Assembly: GCA_030629005.1 (NCBI GenBank)
Contig: DAOVPV010000005.1
Coordinates: forward strand, 462-64,461
Direction: 5' to 3'
DNA length: 64,000 nucleotides
Source of the DNA: a bacterium
GTDB taxonomy: Bacteria > Babelota > Babeliae > Babelales > UASB340
Shown: in pieces, positions 1 to 41,626 of the stretch
Position numbering within the stretch: position 1 is the first letter of the stretch
How the letters are laid out: every line of letters starts with the position of its first letter
Program-made: the position numbers and the translations under genes
The notes under the pieces: model-generated
The model's database searches: none
What the model was told of the DNA's origin: nothing
The model's input: only the letters and a program-made list of their open reading frames with translations

Positions 1-22
1 AGAAACATTTAATGTTTATAAA
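1..22. repeat. 22-nt exact repeat (AGAAACATTTAATGTTTATAAA), identical to 16761-16782; contains the palindrome AAACATT-T-AATGTTT
   Basis: Direct comparison of 1-22 with 16761-16782; similarity continues imperfectly for about 10 more nt. Confidence 0.9.
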
Positions 23-968
23 CAATTCACAAAATATCAATTTACTATCTATAGTAACACCAGTCTTCAATGAAGAAGAAAATATCGAAAAACACCATCA
101 AAACTTAACACTAACTTTATCAAAACTAAAACACTTTAAAAATTATGAAATCATATTCGTAAATGACGGAAGCACAGATAATTCTATAAATATTTTAAAA
201 AAATTAAGCAACATAGATAAAAAATTAAAAATCATAAACTTTACGCGAAACTTTGGGCACGAAGCAGCAACAACGGCCGGCATTAATAATGCAGCAGGTG
301 ATGCTATCGTAATTATAGATGGAGACATGCAAGACCCTACAAAACTAATTCTAGAGTTTGAAAAAGAATACATAAACAACTTTGATATCGTTTACGGTCA
401 ACGTTCAAAACGTTTAAAAGAGTCTTGGCTAAAAAAAATTACATCTAAAGCCTTTTACCCAATATTTAAAGTGTTAACAAAAATAGATATTCCAAAGAAC
501 ACTGGCGATTTTTGTTTAATAAGTCGACGTGCCATCAACATTTTTAATCAACTCCCAGAAAAAAGCCGATTCGTTAGAGGATTAATTTATTGGTCCGGAT
601 TACCAAAAAAAGCAATCTTGTTTGTTCGCAAAGAACGCAATGCAGGACAAACAAAATATAATTATAAAAAATTAACAATATTCGCACTGGAAAATATTAT
701 TTCATTTTCGACAGCACCAATTTATTTTATGATCTTTTTTTCCATGTTTTGTATCACCGCATGTGTTATTGGCGCAATTACCGCTATAATTTTTAGAATT
801 ATGGGATATGTAATAATGCTCGGATGGACATCGCTAATAATTAGTATGTTATTTTTATTTTCTGTAACCCTTTTCTTTTTGGGAATTATAGGTCTTTATA
901 TTGGAAAAATTTTTGAAGAAATAAAAGGTAGACCAACATACCTAATTGAGGAAAAAATCAATTTTTAA
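12..968 (+). CDS. Family-2 glycosyltransferase of the polyprenol-phosphate sugar synthase type (GtrB/ArnC/Dpm1-like)
   Basis: 318-aa ORF with GT-A motifs 'LSIVTPVFNEEENI', 'VNDGSTDNS' and 'DGDMQDP', followed by C-terminal hydrophobic helices. Confidence 0.8.
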   Translation: MFINNSQNINLLSIVTPVFNEEENIEKHHQNLTLTLSKLKHFKNYEIIFVNDGSTDNSINILKKLSNIDKKLKIINFTRNFGHEAATTAGINNAAGDAIVIIDGDMQDPTKLILEFEKEYINNFDIVYGQRSKRLKESWLKKITSKAFYPIFKVLTKIDIPKNTGDFCLISRRAINIFNQLPEKSRFVRGLIYWSGLPKKAILFVRKERNAGQTKYNYKKLTIFALENIISFSTAPIYFMIFFSMFCITACVIGAITAIIFRIMGYVIMLGWTSLIISMLFLFSVTLFFLGIIGLYIGKIFEEIKGRPTYLIEEKINF

Positions 969-16663: not shown

Positions 16664-16760
16664 AAGAAACCCTTAATTTAAAATAAAACATAGAAAGTAA
16701 TCTTATAGATAAAAAAGAAGATGTAAAGAAAAACATAATAGAAATCGAAACAAACTCGAA

Positions 16761-16782
16761 AGAAACATTTAATGTTTATAAA
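16761..16782. repeat. Second copy of the 22-nt repeat found at 1-22; overlaps the stop codon of ORF 16776-17768
   Basis: Exact identity to 1-22; belongs to the dispersed (C)GRAAGAAACAYTTAATGTT motif family. Confidence 0.9.
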
Positions 16783-17741
16783 TAGTTAATAAACTTCACA
16801 ACCGAATATTTACCATTCCAACTATCCCAAGAAACAAAAACCGTATTTTCATCTATCCATTTGTCATCAATAAGATAGGTAACATCTGTTAAATGACCAA
16901 GCTCTGATCTACTGTGAATTTTAAACTCTCCCATAGAATATTTATGCCAAACACCTAACTCTAGTTCTTTGGCCATCCAAACGTATGCTCGCTCATTCTC
17001 AGACCACTTTAATGGGAAATGCGAAAATCCAATCCACCAACCACAATGTTCTGGATCCAAAGAAGTTAATCTAAAACCAATATTTCCATTTTCTTTAACC
17101 CAAGTAAACTTACATTTAACATCTTTAATTCTACAATTACCCCTGCAGCCCATAGAACCAAACTTTGCTAAACTAGAATGTCTTATATGAGCAACTCGTG
17201 TATTTAAATTTTTTAAAAACATCTGAAAAATATACTGTACATCAGAAACAAATGGGATTCCAAAAACTATAAAATTAGTTTTTTCCGGAAATTTATTTTC
17301 TTTAAAAAACTTTTCAAACTTAGATTTATAAATTAACGAATTTTTAGCATTATTTTTTATACCAGATAAATTTTTATAAAATCCCACTTTTATGGATAAA
17401 AGTATTAATGCAAATAAAATTAATATAATAATATTTTTAAAATATTTATTTATATTTTTTTTACTAAAAAGGTAGATTCCGTAAATAAATGTAAAAATTA
17501 AAATTGGATAAACGGCATTTATATATCGAGGATTTGGATATGCAACCACACCGGGCCAACTAAAAAGAACGCTAGATATAAACAGACCTACAAAAATTTT
17601 TAAATTATTTTTATATGCATAAATCAAAAAACTAAATATAAATATTACTAAAGCTAATAACAAAAGTTTATCTAAATTAGTATGAATACTGAAATTTAAA
17701 AATTCAGATGAAAATCGAACAATAAAATTTAAAAAATTCAT
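16776..17741 (-). CDS. Membrane protein (about 5 TM helices) with a ~190-aa soluble C-terminal domain; possibly the distal half of a split GT-C glycosyltransferase
   Basis: ORF track starts at 17768 on a non-ATG codon; first ATG is at 17741; no recognisable motif in the soluble domain. Confidence 0.5.
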   Translation of the reverse strand: MNFLNFIVRFSSEFLNFSIHTNLDKLLLLALVIFIFSFLIYAYKNNLKIFVGLFISSVLFSWPGVVAYPNPRYINAVYPILIFTFIYGIYLFSKKNINKYFKNIIILILFALILLSIKVGFYKNLSGIKNNAKNSLIYKSKFEKFFKENKFPEKTNFIVFGIPFVSDVQYIFQMFLKNLNTRVAHIRHSSLAKFGSMGCRGNCRIKDVKCKFTWVKENGNIGFRLTSLDPEHCGWWIGFSHFPLKWSENERAYVWMAKELELGVWHKYSMGEFKIHSRSELGHLTDVTYLIDDKWIDENTVFVSWDSWNGKYSVVKFINYL

Positions 17742-17794
17742 AATGTAGCCAATTTTTTCAAAAACCAACCCAACTTAACATTAACCAACAACAT

Positions 17795-17957
17795 CGCCCA
17801 ACGCTTACGCATAGGGCTACCACAAAAACGCCTGCTTACGCAGACTCATTGTAAATTATAATTATTTTAGAAATAAAATATCACGTAAATTTATTAAACC
17901 AACATAGCCTGCGTTAGCGGGCGACTCTACGGTAGCCCTATGCGTAAGCGTTGGGCG
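17795..17957. mobile_element. GC-rich inverted-repeat element (REP-pair or MITE-like), same family as 32976-33287
   Basis: Arms 17795-17843 and 17908-17957; outer 27 nt (CGCCCAACGCTTACGCATAGGGCTACC) are perfectly inverted; AT-rich ~64-nt core; GC-rich against the AT-rich background. Confidence 0.8.
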
Positions 17958-17973
17958 TACAAAAAATAAAACT

Positions 17974-26511: not shown

Positions 26512-28161
26512 TCAAATATCTAATTTGAATATATTTGTATAAAAACCAAATGATACAAGTATTAATAACGGTTCTATTGGCAAGCGCATTCTAGCATAAC
26601 CACCAGCAAGGCCAATTACTAAAAAGAATGAAATAAAGGCAAACATAGAAAAAAATTTTGATTCTAAAACGAACCCTGAATAACAAAATAAATAAACCAA
26701 GAAGCTTCCAAAAACTCCCAACAAAATAAACAAAAACAAAACTATTTCAAAATAAACTAATAATTTTAAATATATATTCTTCGTAGGTGGAATTAAGTAA
26801 CGCTTAAGCAAATCCCAAACCGTTCGTTTATTAGAAAAATAATCTATACTTTGCCTATTATTTTCTAGATATAAAATTTCTGCAGAATACAAAGAAAAGC
26901 TTGTTCTAAATATATCTATTAAAAAATTCTTTATTGTTATAAATGGATATTTCTTAAAATATTTAAACGCTAAATCAAACTGTAAATTACAATATTCTAT
27001 TTCATTTAAATCCCGGCCCAATTCATTTTTTTTCTCTTGAGCCAACAAGCTTACCTTTTTTCTTAAAATTTCTTTAGTTTTATCATAACTGCATCCTTCT
27101 TCTAACATCGCACTACGAGCTGCTGCAAAGTTTAAAAAATGCCCACCAGGTAAAGTATGAAAAAAAACTTGTCCCTGAGCAACATAATTCCTTACAAGCC
27201 AAGGACTAACAACAATTATAAAACCTAAAGTTAAAAATAAACTTTTTTTTATATTTAATTTTAATTTTTTTTTTATATCTGGATCCCCGATCAAGCCGGG
27301 GATGACAAGAGAGATTTTATTATTTTTAAAATTTAAATTATTTAAAAAAATTAAAATCACAGACAAAAATAATAAATAGTGGCCAACAGGACGAACGAGA
27401 CCAGCAAGACCAAGAAATATACCGGCAACAAAAAGATTTTTGAATGCCGAGCTACTACTTCGTTGAAACTTCGAAGTACAAGACGGAGATCCCGGATCGT
27501 AGTCTCCAGTCTTCGCCATGGGCTTCGACGGACAGGCAGGAATGACAGTGCCTACGGCGCTGTTAATGCTACCAGTACCTAACCCAATATTGCTTTCATT
27601 TAACCCATACTTTGTATTGACCAAATAGTGCTCGCTTTCTGCGTTTGTCATCCCGGACTTGATCCGGGATCTAGTCCCTTTATAAAAATAAAAGATCAAA
27701 AAAAATATAAACAAAAATATAAACAAAGTCTCTGACATAAAAAAGCCAGAATATAAAACAAGACCAATTTGAATAGCACTATACAAAGAAGAAAGCTTTG
27801 CCAAAACCAAGCTTTTTGGAAATAAAATTAAAGATAATAAAAAAATCAATACGGGAATTAACGATCCCAAAAGTATTTGAAACCACAAAACATTTTTGGT
27901 ATCCACACCAAATAATTTATAAAAACTAGCCAAAAACATTGGATATCCTGGTAACCGATAAAAATTTTGTTTACCATTTACTGAATAACCATGCCCAGAA
28001 GAAATGCTTTTAGCTATTTTATGATAAGTATTAGAATCTACCTGCCAGTAATTATTATTTTTAGATAAATAACTATTAAAAATGAAGCTTCTAATTAAAA
28101 AAGAAAACACAAATAAAATTAATAAAAAATACTTATGCTCCTTTATCAATCTAATTATCAA
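26512..28161 (-). CDS. GT-C fold membrane glycosyltransferase (ArnT/PMT-like), copy 3, carrying in-frame repeat-element insertions
   Basis: 549 aa; collinear with copy 2 ('FYRLPGYPMFLAS', 'VRPVGHYLLFL') apart from a 66-codon GC-rich insertion and a 'VIPGLIGDP' hairpin insertion. Confidence 0.6.
   Translation of the reverse strand: MIIRLIKEHKYFLLILFVFSFLIRSFIFNSYLSKNNNYWQVDSNTYHKIAKSISSGHGYSVNGKQNFYRLPGYPMFLASFYKLFGVDTKNVLWFQILLGSLIPVLIFLLSLILFPKSLVLAKLSSLYSAIQIGLVLYSGFFMSETLFIFLFIFFLIFYFYKGTRSRIKSGMTNAESEHYLVNTKYGLNESNIGLGTGSINSAVGTVIPACPSKPMAKTGDYDPGSPSCTSKFQRSSSSAFKNLFVAGIFLGLAGLVRPVGHYLLFLSVILIFLNNLNFKNNKISLVIPGLIGDPDIKKKLKLNIKKSLFLTLGFIIVVSPWLVRNYVAQGQVFFHTLPGGHFLNFAAARSAMLEEGCSYDKTKEILRKKVSLLAQEKKNELGRDLNEIEYCNLQFDLAFKYFKKYPFITIKNFLIDIFRTSFSLYSAEILYLENNRQSIDYFSNKRTVWDLLKRYLIPPTKNIYLKLLVYFEIVLFLFILLGVFGSFLVYLFCYSGFVLESKFFSMFAFISFFLVIGLAGGYARMRLPIEPLLILVSFGFYTNIFKLDI
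27281..27309. repeat. Solo hairpin element GGATCCCCGATCAAGCCGGGGATGACAAG, in frame within the CDS
   Basis: 7-bp GC stem (ATCCCCG/CGGGGAT); translates as 'VIPGLIGDP' in a loop absent from the paralogue. Confidence 0.7.
27487..27677. mobile_element. MITE-like composite: two inverted copies of the (CT)AGATCCCGG...GGATGACA hairpin element flanking ~95 nt, in frame within the CDS
   Basis: Left copy 27487-27548 (expanded loop); right copy 27644-27677 (TTTGTCATCCCGGACTTGATCCGGGATCTAGTCC); conspicuously GC-rich compared with the flanks. Confidence 0.65.
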
Positions 28162-30386: not shown

Positions 30387-31694
30387 TTAGTTTTTGTACC
30401 TCTTATACATAAGTCCACACTCATCAACAATAATTTTATTTTTTAAATCTATGTTTTTTAATTTTAAAAAAAAGGCGTGTGGAACTAAAATTAAAATAAT
30501 ATCTGACCATAATACAGCAGACTCTAAATTATCAAATCTTCTGAATTTAAATTTATTTAACTCCAATTTAATTATGTTTGGTTCATAAACTGCAAAATCA
30601 AATTTATTTTTATTAGTGTTAAGTTTTTCGGAAGAAACATTTAATGTTAATGTTTTCGAAATTTCTAAAGCAGGAGAACCACGAAGATCATCAACATCTG
30701 CTTTAAAAGTTAATCCTAAAGAAAGCACATTGGGTTTTTTATCCCTTTTTTTATAAAAGGCTTCAACTGTTTTTAATAAATTATTAATAACTAAGCCAGG
30801 CTTATTATCATTAATCTTTCTTGCCATCTGTATAATTTGAGTTTTATCTGGAAACGTTTCTATCAAAAACCATGGGTCAACTGCAATACAATGCCCGCCA
30901 ACACCACAACCTGGAGTTAAAATATTTACCCTTGGATGTTTATTTGCAAGCTCTATTAATTTAAACGGATCTATACCTGCAGACTTCGCCAAATCTGAAA
31001 CTTCATTTGCAAAAGCAATATTTACATCCCTGTAAGCATTTTCTGTTAATTTTACCATTTCAGCAGTCTTATCATCTGTAAGATAAATATTTCCTGTTAT
31101 AAATTCGGAAGAAACATTTAATATTTTTGAATAAAAATCTTTAGCAAGCTCTCCGGATTCAGAACAAATACCACCGATAACCCTATCATTAGAAATTAGT
31201 TCTTCAAAAATTTTACCTGGCAAAACTCGTTCTGGACAATGTGCAACATAAAAATCTTTTGAACATTCTAAACCCGAATTTACTTGTAAAATTTCTGCAA
31301 ACTTTTGAGTTGTACCAACAGGAACTGTTGATTCTAAAATTACTAAATTATTTTTATTAAGAACTTTTGATATCTCTTTGGCTGCACTAAATACATAAGA
31401 TAAATCTGCTTTTTTATGTTCATCAAAATTATTTTCTAGAAATGGAGTCGGAACAGCAACAACAAAGACATCTGCTGCAATTATTTTGTTACTTGCTTTA
31501 AAATTCCCAGACTTTATTGCTAACTTAAGTTTTTCATCGATTCCTGTTTCGAATATTGGTGATTCTGTTTTATTAATTTTTTCTATTTTAGAAATATCAA
31601 CATCAAAACCAAAAACTTGATAACCAGAGAGTGCGGATACTATAGCTGTTGGCAAGCCAATATAACCCAAACCAACAATAGTAACTTTCTTCAT
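30387..31694 (-). CDS. wecC: UDP-N-acetyl-D-mannosamine dehydrogenase-type nucleotide-sugar dehydrogenase
   Basis: 'KVTIVGLGYIGLPTA', 'TAEMVKLTENAYRDVNIAFANE', 'GVGGHCIAVDPWF'; GGAG RBS before the ATG at 31694. Confidence 0.8.
   Translation of the reverse strand: MKKVTIVGLGYIGLPTAIVSALSGYQVFGFDVDISKIEKINKTESPIFETGIDEKLKLAIKSGNFKASNKIIAADVFVVAVPTPFLENNFDEHKKADLSYVFSAAKEISKVLNKNNLVILESTVPVGTTQKFAEILQVNSGLECSKDFYVAHCPERVLPGKIFEELISNDRVIGGICSESGELAKDFYSKILNVSSEFITGNIYLTDDKTAEMVKLTENAYRDVNIAFANEVSDLAKSAGIDPFKLIELANKHPRVNILTPGCGVGGHCIAVDPWFLIETFPDKTQIIQMARKINDNKPGLVINNLLKTVEAFYKKRDKKPNVLSLGLTFKADVDDLRGSPALEISKTLTLNVSSEKLNTNKNKFDFAVYEPNIIKLELNKFKFRRFDNLESAVLWSDIILILVPHAFFLKLKNIDLKNKIIVDECGLMYKRYKN
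30627..30648. repeat. Dispersed motif copy TTCGGAAGAAACATTTAATGTT (codes 'LNVSSEK' on the minus strand)
   Basis: Direct reading; shares more than 18 nt with 31104-31122 and 39399-39420. Confidence 0.8.
31104..31122. repeat. Dispersed motif copy TTCGGAAGAAACATTTAAT (codes 'LNVSSEF')
   Basis: Direct reading; same orientation and reading frame as the other copies. Confidence 0.8.
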
Positions 31695-31739
31695 CACTAC
31701 TCCACTAACCACAGATTATATGCACACAACCTGTATTTT

Positions 31740-32870: not shown

Positions 32871-32975
32871 ATTACTCTAACCATTTCGTCTTTTTATTAA
32901 TAAAATTATTAAACTATTTCAATTAGCTTTGCATCTTTGATGTATAATACAATCCGTTCTACCAGTCAACAATAC

Positions 32976-33287
32976 CGCCCAACGCTTACGCATAGGGCTA
33001 CTACAAATACGCCCGCTCACGCAGGCTTATTCTTTGTAATAGAGCTATGGCGTTCTTCTTGGTTTAAAATATAATTTTTTATTTTTTGTAAAGAACTACG
33101 ATCAACAGGAAAAACACCGTAACCTTGTTGCCAGGAAAAATCAGATAAAAAAATAAACATAATTATTTTTCATAGTTAATCTAACAATTACAACCTAAAT
33201 AAAATCCTATTCTTAAACATTTATCAATAAAAAAAAGCCTGCGTAAGCGGGCGTATTTGTGGTAGCCCTATGCGTAAGCGTTGGGCG
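32976..33287. mobile_element. Decayed REPtron: ~50-nt GC-rich inverted arms enclosing a Y1 (IS200/RAYT-like) transposase remnant
   Basis: Arms 32976-33025 and 33238-33287 match 48/50 as inverted repeats and share the CGCCCAACGCTTACGCATAGGGCTAC core with 17795-17957. Confidence 0.8.
33017..33160 (-). pseudogene. C-terminal remnant of an IS200-like / REP-associated tyrosine transposase
   Basis: 47-codon ORF 'MFIFLSDFSWQQGYGVFPVDRSSLQKIKNYILNQEERHSSITKNKPA' matches the family C-terminal pattern WQxGYxxFSV...YIxNQExHH; the N-terminal HUH part is absent. Confidence 0.65.
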
Positions 33288-33366
33288 ATATTGTTTTCTT
33301 ATATTTTAATATTAATACATTCATAAACCTTATGATTTTAATCATATTTAAAATTAAAATATTTGC

Positions 33367-35590: not shown

Positions 35591-37423
35591 CTAAATTTTA
35601 TCCAACTTTATTGTATATTTTATGTTATCTATAGAGCTAATATTTTCAAGTGTTGTTAAATCACCAACATCAGTTTTTTGCAACAAACTAGAAAGTACTC
35701 TACGCATAATTTTGCCAGATCTCGTTTTTGGCAAAGCTTCAACAAAGTATATTTTAGCAGGTTTTACCAAAGCGCCAATCTCTATCTTTAAAGTTAATGT
35801 AATTTCTGCCCTTAAATCATCTAAATCCAAGTCAGATTCTTTTAATACTACAAATAATGCAAAATTCTGCCCCTTTATTCTATCTGGAATAGCTGCAACC
35901 GCGGCTTCTGCAACTTTTTGATTCTTAATTGTTGCATTTTCTATCTCTGAAGTTCCAATTCTATGACCGGCAATATTCAATGTTTCATCAGAACGGCCTA
36001 AAAACCAAATGTATCCATTTTCATCTTTTATAGCATAATCACCTGAATAATAATTATCCTTAAATTTGGACCAATAAACTTCTTCAAATCGTTTATTATC
36101 ACCCCAAACACCTTTAGTTAATCCCGGCCAAGAACTTTTAACAATTAAAAAACCTTTCTGACCATTAGGAATAGAAGTCCCATTTTCATCTACAATATCA
36201 ACCTCAATTCCATCTAACGGTAAAGTTGGAGAACCTGGCTTTAAATCCGAAAGTTTATAATCAATTTTTGGAGCAATCATAAAACCACCAGTTTCTGTTT
36301 GCCACCAAGTGTCTATTATTGGACATTTCTTATTACCAACACGGTCAAAAAACCAATACCAAATGTCTGGATTTATAACCTCACCAACAGAACCCAATAC
36401 CTTTAAACTACTTAAATCAATATTTTCCATCCACTTTTCACCTAGTTTTCTTAGCATTCTTATTGCAGTAGGAGAAGTATATAAAGTTGAAACTTTGTAT
36501 TTTTCTATAAGTTTCCACCAAATAGATGGATTAGGAAAATCTGGAGTACCTTCGTATACAACAGAAGTAGCTCCACTCATAAGCGGCGCATAAACCACAT
36601 ACGAGTGACCGGTTACCCAGCCAACATCAGCAGTACACCAATAAACACCATTCTTTGCCCCACCAAAAGCCGCCCCAAATGAATAATTAACATAAGTTAA
36701 GTAACCACCAGTAGAATGAACGATGCCCTTTGGCTTACCCGTGGTCCCAGAAGTATACAAAATAAACAATGGATCATTAGATTCTACCGCAACTGGCTCA
36801 AAGTAATCTTTAGAATTTTTTATTAAATCTGAATACAAAACATCTCTGCGAGAATCTAAGCTCAAAGATAAATCTGTACGCTTTGCAATAATCACTTTTT
36901 TTATTGCGGTTTCATGTACAGCAAGGTCTACAACAAATTTTAAGTTTATAAATTTTCCACGACGCAAGGAATAATCTGCTGTCATTAAATATTTAGCTTT
37001 AGTATCTATAATTCTATCTTTTAATGATTTATAAGAAAATGCAGAAAATACAACGGTATGGATTGCTCCAACACGAGCAACTGCTAATATCGAAAAAATA
37101 GCCCGAGGAATCATTGGCATGTATATTACAACAACATCACCCTTTTTTACCCCAAGATCCGAAAGTCCACAAGCCAGTCGGTTTACTTCATTGTAAATTT
37201 CTTGATATGTAAAAGTTTGATTCTCGCCAAGCTCATTCTCCCAATGAATAGCAATCTTTTCTCCTGAGCCATTTTTGATATGTCTGTCTAGACATTGATA
37301 GGAGGCGTTAAGTTTTCCACCTGTAAACCAATTTAGGTATGGCTTTTCACCAGTGGTAACATCATCCCATTTTTTGAACCAATCTAACTTTTCAGCCTGT
37401 TTTTCCCAGAATAAGTTATTCAT
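35591..37423 (-). CDS. acs: Acetyl-CoA synthetase (acetate--CoA ligase)
   Basis: 610 aa; 'YTSGTTGKPKG', 'WWQTETGG', 'LPKTRSGKIMRR'. Confidence 0.9.
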   Translation of the reverse strand: MNNLFWEKQAEKLDWFKKWDDVTTGEKPYLNWFTGGKLNASYQCLDRHIKNGSGEKIAIHWENELGENQTFTYQEIYNEVNRLACGLSDLGVKKGDVVVIYMPMIPRAIFSILAVARVGAIHTVVFSAFSYKSLKDRIIDTKAKYLMTADYSLRRGKFINLKFVVDLAVHETAIKKVIIAKRTDLSLSLDSRRDVLYSDLIKNSKDYFEPVAVESNDPLFILYTSGTTGKPKGIVHSTGGYLTYVNYSFGAAFGGAKNGVYWCTADVGWVTGHSYVVYAPLMSGATSVVYEGTPDFPNPSIWWKLIEKYKVSTLYTSPTAIRMLRKLGEKWMENIDLSSLKVLGSVGEVINPDIWYWFFDRVGNKKCPIIDTWWQTETGGFMIAPKIDYKLSDLKPGSPTLPLDGIEVDIVDENGTSIPNGQKGFLIVKSSWPGLTKGVWGDNKRFEEVYWSKFKDNYYSGDYAIKDENGYIWFLGRSDETLNIAGHRIGTSEIENATIKNQKVAEAAVAAIPDRIKGQNFALFVVLKESDLDLDDLRAEITLTLKIEIGALVKPAKIYFVEALPKTRSGKIMRRVLSSLLQKTDVGDLTTLENISSIDNIKYTIKLDKI

Positions 37424-39188: not shown

Positions 39189-39521
39189 TTAATAGTTCAA
39201 GACTAACTTTAAGTTTTCTTTTAATAAAATAATATTATTGTTGCTTATTTCTAAAACCTTATATCCCCAAACAATATCATCTTTAAAAACAACTTCTTGA
39301 TTATTTAAATGTTGCAAAATCGCACCGTACCCTTTTTTATATTTGGTAATAGCCATAAGTTTGGGACCATAACTTTTAGAATATTCTATCTCAATTTTTT
39401 CGGAAGAAACACTTAATGTTGTTGAATAATTAAATGGATCTCGTATATTTTGCGAATGTAATCCGGAAAAAACATTTATTAAAAAACATATTTTGAAAAA
39501 AAAATTAATTTTTTTTATCAC
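39189..39521 (-). CDS. PilP-like small periplasmic protein
   Basis: 110 aa with leader; position immediately upstream of the secretin; assignment by context only. Confidence 0.4.
   Translation of the reverse strand: MIKKINFFFKICFLINVFSGLHSQNIRDPFNYSTTLSVSSEKIEIEYSKSYGPKLMAITKYKKGYGAILQHLNNQEVVFKDDIVWGYKVLEISNNNIILLKENLKLVLNY
39399..39420. repeat. Dispersed motif copy TTCGGAAGAAACACTTAATGTT (codes 'LSVSSEK')
   Basis: Direct reading; 26-nt similarity (TCAATYTTTTCGGAAGAAACACTWAA) with 39581-39606. Confidence 0.8.
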
Positions 39522-40113
39522 CCAAAAACTCCAGTACTCTATATTTGAGAATAAATAAAAGATTGTCTTTATCTATCGTTTCAATCTTTTCGGAAGAAAC
39601 ACTAAACTTTTTAGAATTTAATGTTAAAGATTTTATCTTTAAGAAATGGTTATTAACAAAATCATTTTTTAGAAAAGAAATAAAATTCTTAAAAGAACCA
39701 GAAAGCTTTAGTTCATACATATTCTTTCTACAAAAAGCTCTTTTTGCCTTAGATAAAAACTCAAAACTTACAACACTTAGATTATATTTTTCTAACAATG
39801 AAATCACTCGCAATTTATTATTTAATTTTAAATCTTGAATAAAATTTTTTCCCTGTTTTTCTGTTAATTTAGCAAACTCTATATCTAATTCATTATTCTT
39901 ATCTTTAGCACCCTCAAAGGAGAGTTTTTGTTGCTGTAAATTGTTAAGTTCAGCCAACTCCTTATTTACTGAAACATCTGTTGGATTAATTAAAAATAAA
40001 CGAAAAATAACAAAAATGATTAAAAATAATCCTAAAGACATTAAAAAACGTCTAAAAACACTGATATTTCTTAGAAAAATGATTATTCTATGTTCTTTTA
40101 AAATATTTGCCAT
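39505..40113 (-). CDS. PilO/PilN-like bitopic membrane protein
   Basis: 202 aa; single N-terminal TM helix followed by a coiled-coil segment; 17-nt overlap with the PilP-like gene. Confidence 0.4.
   Translation of the reverse strand: MANILKEHRIIIFLRNISVFRRFLMSLGLFLIIFVIFRLFLINPTDVSVNKELAELNNLQQQKLSFEGAKDKNNELDIEFAKLTEKQGKNFIQDLKLNNKLRVISLLEKYNLSVVSFEFLSKAKRAFCRKNMYELKLSGSFKNFISFLKNDFVNNHFLKIKSLTLNSKKFSVSSEKIETIDKDNLLFILKYRVLEFLGDKKN
39589..39607. repeat. Dispersed motif copy TTCGGAAGAAACACTAAAC (codes 'FSVSSEK')
   Basis: Direct reading; same orientation and frame as the other copies. Confidence 0.75.
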
Positions 40114-41549: not shown

Positions 41550-41626
41550 CTAGATCCTGAAACAAGTTCAGGATGACAATTAAAAAAAAATCACTATTGT
41601 CATCCTAAACTTATTTCAGGATCTAG
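41550..41626. repeat. Inverted pair of AT-shifted hairpin elements (CTAGATCCTGAAACAAGTTCAGGATGACAAT, 15 nt, inverse copy); probable bidirectional terminator
   Basis: Arms 41550-41580 and 41596-41626 match 29/31 as an inverted repeat; lies between convergent genes; same family as 27644-27677. Confidence 0.7.

Follow-up and report, generated by a model that had tools for sequence, protein, structure and literature searches.

The stretch of DNA analyzed here (64,000 nucleotides of contig DAOVPV010000005.1, hereafter the window; C9:462-64461 in our contig numbering) contains a wecC-like gene in which a motif of about 20 nucleotides (nt) occurs twice, and this motif is neither a protein motif nor an uptake signal nor a chance repeat but a discrete DNA insertion unit, 21 nt in length. 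It has the consensus TCGGAAGAAACATTTAATGTT and is dispersed through its host genome (1.05 Mb in 15 contigs, ~30% GC, ~90% coding, 95% complete), that of an uncultured intracellular bacterium whose nearest named relatives are Candidatus Dependentiae (TM6, Babeliales). We consider it probable that the unit is a complete, non-autonomous micro-insertion element that spread recently by single-strand transposition coupled to the replication fork, with the enzyme acting in trans. A more specific version, which we hold to be plausible at somewhat less than even chances, is that these 21 nt, consisting of two abutting ends, are a complete and recently active single-strand transposon, the smallest known, which would be pasted at the fork by a resident or other HUH-type enzyme and which, at seven codons without stops in four frames, would be tuned to a gene-dense genome.

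Copies in the window and across the genome

The exact 19-mer TTCGGAAGAAACATTTAAT is present at 30627-30645 and 31104-31122 and is read on the minus strand as ...TLNVSSEKLN and ...ILNVSSEFIT, in the same orientation and frame, as the initial annotation had described. At <=3 mismatches the 19-mer has seven matches in the window, compared with 0.14 expected from dinucleotide shuffles, and the 10-mer CGGAAGAAAC, which had been judged to be more frequent than chance allows, indeed occurs exactly four times. Six of the seven matches are on the plus strand; the remaining one, a minus-strand match at 35975-35993 that has three mismatches, is probably due to chance. All six copies listed earlier exist and share the plus orientation, including two at gene boundaries (1-16 and 16756-16776) and two in genes called pilP-like and pilO-like, labels for which neither Pfam nor NCBIfam gave confirmation. 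One of these six, the copy reported at 39589-39607, is part of a longer, 36-nt variant. The host gene and the copies in the window are as follows.

30387..31712, minus strand: wecC-like host gene of the UDP-ManNAc (UDP-N-acetyl-D-mannosamine) dehydrogenase family, with two insertions
1..16, plus strand: the last 16 nt (3' part) of a copy of the 21-mer (TCGAAAGAAACATTTAATGTT) that starts 4-5 nt before the window and is cut by its edge
16756..16776, plus strand: 21-mer copy (TCGAAAGAAACATTTAATGTT) at the boundary of the open reading frame (ORF) 16776..17768 (minus strand)
30628..30654, plus strand: 27-nt form (21-mer with a 6-nt AATGTT duplication), in frame in wecC; target flank TTCGA
31105..31125, plus strand: 21-mer (TCGGAAGAAACATTTAATATT), in frame in wecC, encoding ILNVSSE; target flank TTTGA
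39400..39420, plus strand: 21-mer with one mismatch in the 110-amino-acid 'pilP-like' ORF; target flank GTTGA
39463..39483, plus strand: degenerate copy (CCGGAAAAAACATTTATTAAA) in the part of that 110-amino-acid ORF encoding the signal peptide
39590..39625, plus strand: 36-nt variant (TCGGAAGAA-ACACTAAACTTTTTAGA-ATTTAATGTT) in the 202-amino-acid 'pilO-like' ORF; target flank AAAGA

The 27-nt form encodes TLTLNVSSE on the minus strand, and the second wecC copy, at 31105..31125, lies in the linker joining the NAD-binding and central domains. The ATG inside the copy at 1..16 is the first start codon of a GT2 glycosyltransferase ORF (12..968). The two boundary copies (1-22 and 16756-16782) have 27 identical bases in common (TCGAAAGAAACATTTAATGTTTATAAA) and represent the same G>A subvariant, with TATAAA on the 3' side in place of the usual NNNGA flank.

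A search of the whole genome at <=3 mismatches resulted in 116 copies of the 21-mer, or ~1 per 9 kb, comprising 41 perfect copies and 46, 23 and 6 copies with one, two and three mismatches, respectively. At <=2 mismatches there were 110 copies and none for the reversed-sequence control, so that the count on both strands is far above expectation and the repeat is not confined to the window. A profile search added ~50 weaker or partial matches, and the k-mers of the 21-mer are the most over-represented in the genome. According to an information profile over all copies, the consensus is sharply bounded, with a weak A-rich flank on its 5' side. In this core form a 9-nt left end, TCGGAAGAA, abuts a 12-nt right end, ACATTTAATGTT, with a 5-bp hairpin, and the two ends are not inverted repeats of one another. 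Where AAACATT-T-AATGTTT had been proposed as the palindromic core, the conserved palindrome is instead AACAT-TTA-ATGTT, which would fold into a weak hairpin of 5 bp (-1.9 kcal/mol).

Genes contain 73 of the 116 copies (63%), and the other 43 (37%) are intergenic or at gene boundaries, compared with 10% non-coding DNA, which amounts to a ~3-4 times enrichment between genes. Within genes of either orientation, every one of the four stop-free frames is represented among the copies, which are read as SEETFNV, RKKHLM, TLNVSSD or NIKCFFR. A preference for one reading frame, for which a test had been suggested, was not observed. These counts of frame and location refute the reading in which a peptide motif (LNVSSE/D) is selected at the protein level, the probability of which we regard as negligible: the four clear genic copies in the window do read L(N/S)VSSE or a variant of it (LNSKKFSVSSE in the 36-nt form), but the same DNA gives the other peptides elsewhere, over a third of the copies are non-coding or at boundaries, and orthologues are without the segment.

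Insertion, target and size series

Both wecC copies are missing in all nine orthologues compared (9/9, from the same genus, family and order), in which they correspond to clean gaps of 7 and 9 residues in conserved, ungapped sequence. The segments had been thought to be variable parts of the dehydrogenase; they are gap-free conserved stretches that received the unit. Orthologues do not encode the same peptide with other codons, the peptide being wholly missing there. Removing exactly the 21-mer at 31105-31125 (TAT TCA AA[...]A TTT ATA) yields FYSKFIT (FYSKFITG), and removing the 27 nt at 30628-30654 yields EISKKLN, both of which match the orthologues. The imperfect hairpin that had been drawn at 30627-30660 is resolved into a 21-mer, a 6-nt duplication and the target flank. 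The other motif-bearing genes were compared with 400 kb of the closest genome, G001, in which 12 of 14 decidable genic sites have a gap of 6-9 residues at the motif (six more sites were uninformative). In the window, the copy at 39400..39420 faces a 9-residue gap in the G001 orthologue and the 36-nt variant at 39590..39625 a 13-residue gap. Judging from the encoded sequences, the insertions often appear to add about seven tolerated residues to essential proteins.

The unit ends where the 21-mer ends. All 21 positions are conserved among copies while the flanks differ, indicating that no target site is duplicated. The 150-nt flanks share no sequence beyond the unit except that contributed by neighboring copies, indicating that there is no larger parent element. 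These unshared flanks rule out that the motif is the end of something larger, and 74 of the 84 exact occurrences of the 9-mer TCGGAAGAA in the genome fall within recognized elements. The suggestion that the motif marks the end of a tiny mobile element was therefore well directed as to mobile DNA, the 21-mer being the entire element.

Positions downstream of the unit define a target. After three free positions, 81% of copies have G at +24 and 71% have A at +25, whatever the location class, which places the insertion point immediately 5' of NNNGA or, on the opposite strand, 3' of TTCNNN. On the G-rich strand, the lagging-strand template, the arrangement reads 5'-TTCNNN^AACATTAAATGTTTCTTCCGA^tttt, and the last six bases of the element itself, TTCCGA^, fit TTCNNN^ just as the preceding flank does. 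The target rule also predicts an internal site, TTCTTC^, and a nested copy at C12:27013 sits exactly there in an older copy. The intergenic copies favor positions just upstream of the Shine-Dalgarno sequences of same-strand genes, which in AT-rich spacers are the main GA-containing sites; for 22 of the 43 intergenic or boundary copies the start of a same-strand gene is <=60 nt away.

Longer forms share the target and both ends of the 21-mer. The 27-nt form, with its AATGTT duplication, has ~5 copies including the one in wecC. A 36-nt form, TCGGAAGAA-CACACGAGTGTGGAA-ACATTTAATGTT, contains a second small hairpin (CACAC/GTGTG) and has 14 copies, and the window copy at 39590-39625 is a variant of it with a different interior. 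In the 69-nt form, with 7 copies, a separate 33-nt GC-rich repeat is nested in the hairpin of the 36-mer. All form lengths (21, 27, 36 and 69 nt) are divisible by three, and 20 of the 21 long (36- and 69-nt) forms have the polarity of the 21-mer that is described below. As the two ends are all that the forms have in common, we interpret them as transposon ends and not as a protein-binding site, and the identical ends of the 21-, 36- and 69-nt units together with the nested insertion at a predicted site argue for sequence-specific cleavage and joining.

After insertion, copies accumulate mutations. Relative to the consensus, G>A changes affect 14% of G sites, C>T changes 5%, and other changes ~1%; this AT-biased, strand-asymmetric spectrum is the same pattern that produces the skew of the genome, indicating neutral decay rather than functional maintenance.

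Outside this genome the unit was almost entirely missing. Of 30 relatives, among them three from the same genus, all but one were without a match to the 21-mer at <=2 mismatches; its 15-nt right end reached only the level of the reversed control in 40 relatives; and the exact 21-mer had no match in ~185,000 species-representative genomes, IMG/VR and JGI metagenome contigs. The lone exception is a 20/21 copy (TCCGAAGAAACATTTAATGTT) in a genome of a different genus (G009:C2:20505-20525), which is read as TLNVSSD in a 756-amino-acid secreted protein that differs by 2 residues in length from the G000 orthologue. This copy could be a chance match (p ~0.006), a progenitor-like sequence, or an insertion whose length was offset by a deletion. 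A search for an equivalent element in the 400 kb of G001 found no dispersed high-copy k-mer, the top k-mer there belonging to a 90-bp tandem protein repeat. Among 5.8 billion proteins the closest homologue of the wecC product, its own sequence aside, is only 64% identical, so the insertions cannot be dated from a near relative. This distribution suggests that the 21-mer spread recently in one Dependentiae species.

Several loci contain multiple insertions. Four 21-mer copies fall within 440 bp at C14:156,262-156,730, two of them in a lipoprotein signal peptide, within its positively charged N-terminus (MKNRKKHLMLRMKLTIRKKHLML...), a third just 5' of the ribosome-binding site of the next gene, and the fourth in a linker of an FKBP-type isomerase. 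Two copies lie directly upstream of dnaK (C1:29,334-29,377). A gene for a 347-amino-acid membrane protein (C6:6489-7532, minus strand), which adjoins a Y1 transposase gene, carries three different in-frame inserted repeats: a 21-mer (QTKHLMF), a ATCCTGAA hairpin, and a GC-rich segment present in duplicate (MTNAECGP x2).

Orientation relative to replication

The initial annotation had raised an orientation bias relative to replication direction, and such a bias is strong: in 106 of the 116 copies (~91%; binomial p = 2e-21) TCGG...GTT is the lagging-strand sequence. The bias is alike in genes (67/73) and outside them (39/43), and the genic copies on the C-rich strand comprise 33 that are co-oriented with the host gene and 33 that are opposed to it. 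Polarity thus follows replication and not transcription. In contig C8 the cumulative GC skew has its minimum at 65,013, and an adjoining 504-bp intergenic gap (C8:65,532-66,036) holds 3 of the 16 perfect DnaA boxes of the genome, for which reasons oriC was placed at C8:65.5-66.0 kb. A dif-like 28-mer, GATTCCGATAATAATTATTATGTTAAAA, is found at the overlapping ends of contigs C1 and C2 (C1:312 / C2:16), where skew changes from plus to minus. The orientation of the motif flips at oriC and at this dif-like terminus. The dnaA gene is on another contig (C1:43,820) than the predicted oriC and was dropped as an origin marker, as no skew switch was seen at C1:43.8 kb. As a further side observation, the dif-like 28-mer joins contigs C1 and C2 and has the heptamer TTCCGAT in common with the 21-mer end plus its flank.

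Target availability does not explain the polarity, the preferred strand being the one with fewer GA dinucleotides (45,313 versus 58,034). Two other repeat families of the same genome are without strand bias, namely the ATCCTGAAC...GTTCAGGAT hairpin (30:27) and a GC-rich 33-nt repeat (18:15). The ten wrong-way copies all have 0-1 mismatch (hypergeometric p ~0.05, from the counts).

Polarity of this kind is also expected of a functional chromosome signal under selection, such as a guide resembling KOPS or Chi, a permissive Ter-like site, or a strand-specific uptake sequence. The polarity follows replichores as that of KOPS and Chi does, type IV pilus/secretin genes adjoin copies in the window, and the wrong-way copies are all young. 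We nevertheless consider such a signal very improbable. The motif is missing from genomes of the same genus and was made by insertion rather than substitution; it is sparse (~1 per 9 kb), and just 35% of its copies are intact; its decay tracks the mutational bias of the genome and not purifying selection; it has 21 nt where known polar and uptake signals have 8-12 nt; and the longer variants, with arbitrary interiors, keep the two ends only. Comparison with the individual signals leads to the same rejections. DNA uptake sequences (DUS) and uptake signal sequences (USS) occur ~1 per kb in both orientations equally, are genus- or family-wide and are gained by substitution, whereas the 21-mer is on one strand in 91% of copies, is missing in genus relatives, and is inserted at a much lower density; the uptake-type sequence that had been offered as an explanation was rejected on these grounds. 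KOPS and Chi are 5-8 nt long, are skewed to the leading strand, are conserved in relatives and are not insertions, whereas the 21-mer is polar but longer, species-specific, inserted and decaying.

A lagging-strand bias would likewise arise with no dedicated enzyme, if an abundant 21-nt single-stranded oligonucleotide or a template switch were incorporated into the nascent lagging strand at microhomology. In keeping with this, the 5' end of the element, TCGGA, resembles the following flank, NNNGA. The microhomology is only 2-3 nt and one-sided, however, a reverse transcriptase or retron that could serve as the source was not found in the genome, and precise 21/36/69-nt units with identical ends and a nested insertion at the predicted site speak against such a process, which we regard as improbable.

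Candidate enzymes, precedents and significance

Transposition of the 21-mer as we envisage it would proceed as follows. The moving form would be single-stranded DNA, mobilized at the replication fork by an enzyme acting in trans; this enzyme would cut 3' of TTCNNN both in the left flank and at the right end, and the cut strand would be pasted 3' of another TTCNNN on the lagging-strand template. Copies landing in the two stop-containing frames would be removed by selection, and copies can survive in the genes of a 90%-coding genome because their length is divisible by three and four frames are stop-free. By analogy, this logic would match that of the Y1 (HUH) transposases of the IS200/IS605 family, in which the left end is joined, on the lagging-strand template, to the 3' side of a 4-5-nt target specific to the element, without duplication and with precise excision (PMC5027513).

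The genome encodes one intact IS200/IS605-family Y1 transposase (C6:5963-6367, 134 amino acids, with HUH and Tyr motifs). RVT_1 reverse transcriptase, TnpB (PF07282) and IS110 (PF01548) were not found in the genome, and a search for Y2/IS91 gave no match, although its search controls likewise gave none. The only other DNA-breaking and -joining enzymes found were two Xer-like (XerC/D-type) recombinases. That the resident Y1 transposase mobilizes the 21-mer is suggested by analogy and is possible, but we are doubtful of it.

Several observations weigh against the transposition that we propose. The conserved target bases lie 3 nt from the junction and do not abut it, and only one hairpin, a weak one of -1.9 kcal/mol, is found in the 21-mer, compared with two longer ones at the ends of IS200/IS605 elements. 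No enzyme is linked to the element, the Y1 transposase being the only candidate found; its gene is flanked by GC-rich GTAG-type hairpin repeats unrelated to the 21-mer, and the transposase is also present in genus and family relatives that are without the 21-mer. Two of the 14 decidable genic copies (C5:26100 and C14:183583) show no length difference from G001. Ten copies were also compared with another assembly from this population (ENA ERZ23498683, Logan SRR13892594), and none of the ten (10/10) had a presence/absence polymorphism between the two assemblies, which are 99.93-99.95% identical; for this reason mobility is deduced from comparison and has not been observed. Finally, the wrong-way copies give a weak hint that selection contributes to the polarity, with such copies being lost faster.

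The element might instead be mobile by means of an enzyme other than Y1/HUH, such as a XerC/D-type recombinase acting on folded single strands, or an enzyme of a phage, of a plasmid or of the unassembled ~5% of the genome, a reading we consider unlikely. It draws on the two Xer-like recombinases as the sole other breaking-joining enzymes found, on the dif-like site GATTCCGATAATAATTATTATGTTAAAA, which shares TTCCGAT with the element end plus flank and has an ATGTT arm, on the repeats of the Y1 gene itself, which are unrelated to the 21-mer, and on the 95% completeness of the genome. However, by a rough estimate, a 7-mer of any sequence shared between dif and the element has a ~10% chance expectation (~3-4% for one as GC-rich as TTCCGAT), and the dif-like arms stand in permuted order within the element. 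Elements that exploit Xer integrate at dif and not at >100 dispersed sites, and there is no known reason for replication polarity in Xer systems.

Among known systems, the closest precedent in kind appears, by analogy, to be the small dispersed repeats (SDRs) of Nostocaceae, in behavior IS200/IS605 and REP/RAYT, and in consequence the Rickettsia palindromic elements (RPEs). IS200/IS605 elements resemble the 21-mer in that they have no inverted terminal repeats and cause no target duplication, and also in a hairpin at one end and the presence of a Y1 gene in the genome; the short, one-sided target and the orientation tied to the lagging-strand template would be further likenesses, depending on which strand is processed. 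They differ in that their derivatives are hundreds of nt long, with two subterminal hairpins, one at each end, and a target abutting the junction. The 21-mer has no hairpins at both ends, a second hairpin being found in the 36-nt form only, and a cognate Y1 gene with the same ends on its own element was not found, the flanks of C6:5963-6367 being the unrelated GTAG repeats. The element therefore has some, but not all, features of an IS200/IS605 derivative.

The REP/REPIN-RAYT system shares with the 21-mer a short hairpin repeat, a conserved 5' extension and a single-copy Y1 that would act in trans, and the genome has a REPtron-like locus. REPs lie outside genes, carry a GTAG/CGTC tag, are rich in GC and are usually arranged as inverted doublets, whereas the 21-mer is AT-rich, untagged and found as co-oriented singletons, 73/116 of them genic; a REP/REPIN assignment was rejected on location, tag and doublet arrangement. 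A miniature inverted-repeat transposable element derived from a DDE transposon was also rejected, as the 21-mer is without terminal inverted repeats and without target-site duplication. RPEs are inserted in frame in genes of an obligate intracellular bacterium, in which the added peptide is tolerated. They resemble the 21-mer in this in-frame genic insertion, and they are ~100-150 bp long as opposed to 21 nt; to our knowledge, RPEs have neither replication polarity nor a defined target of such a kind.

SDR1-8 of Nostocaceae (Elhai et al. 2008, Genome Res 18:1484), as they are described in PMC3116915, PMC5861425 and PMC2884548, are dispersed repeats of ~20-27 nt. In these descriptions they are like the 21-mer in having a high copy number, in having been proposed to be mobile and in having no known transposase. 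The 21-mer also presents itself as a 21-27-nt unit that is seen as an insertion when orthologues are compared, and the likeness to the SDRs, as described, is one of kind only. The 21-mer would be set apart from the SDRs of these descriptions by its occurrence in another phylum, strict replication polarity, NNNGA target, mostly in-frame genic insertion and 21/27/36/69-nt series.

Other repeats were noted in the same genome. The REPtron-like locus is intact at C6:5840-6530, where the Y1 gene is bracketed by ~55-nt inverted GC-rich GTAG-tagged hairpin repeats, and gene-less doublets of these repeats are found at 17796-17959 of the window and at C2:8327-8470. One further feature of the window is listed for context only.

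32969..33289 (C9:33430-33750): decayed IS200-like Y1 transposase remnant (33059-33142, minus strand, 28 amino acids) flanked by GC-rich GTAG-REP-like repeats in inverted orientation

A perfect hairpin repeat of 21 nt, ATCCTGAACTTGTTTCAGGAT, is found at 41554-41623 of the window (C9:42015-42083) and in 56 other places, for 57 copies. It is mostly arranged in inverted pairs ~50 nt apart, which is REPIN-like, is without replication-strand bias (30:27), and is shared with the genus relative G001; these repeats could be bidirectional terminators or a second REP family. A GC-rich unit of ~33 nt (e.g. CCAGTCTTCGCGCAAGGCTTCGACGGGCACGGC) is found at ~27511-27545 of the window (C9:27972) in ORF 26512..28161 (minus strand) and has ~33 copies genome-wide, in genes and in spacers, without strand bias (18:15), and is also found in G001. 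One copy nested in a 36-nt element gives the 69-nt form, and the unit looks like a second family of in-frame micro-insertions.

The 21-mer appears, as judged from sequence, to be one of the smallest mobile-looking DNA elements seen. If the proposed transposition is correct, ~21 nt would suffice for excision and for the choice of target and strand, which would lower the minimum size of a mobile element, and the substrate could be synthesized as one oligonucleotide, making strand-specific transposition easy to study in vitro. The orientation of the element, which flips at oriC and dif here, may serve to mark replichores in metagenome-assembled genomes that are not closed. For annotation, such insertions may create spurious 'conserved peptide' signals and shift start codons. 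For the organism itself, the element would be a source of seven-residue insertions in the essential proteins of a reduced genome; dozens of proteins here, the product of wecC included, contain it.

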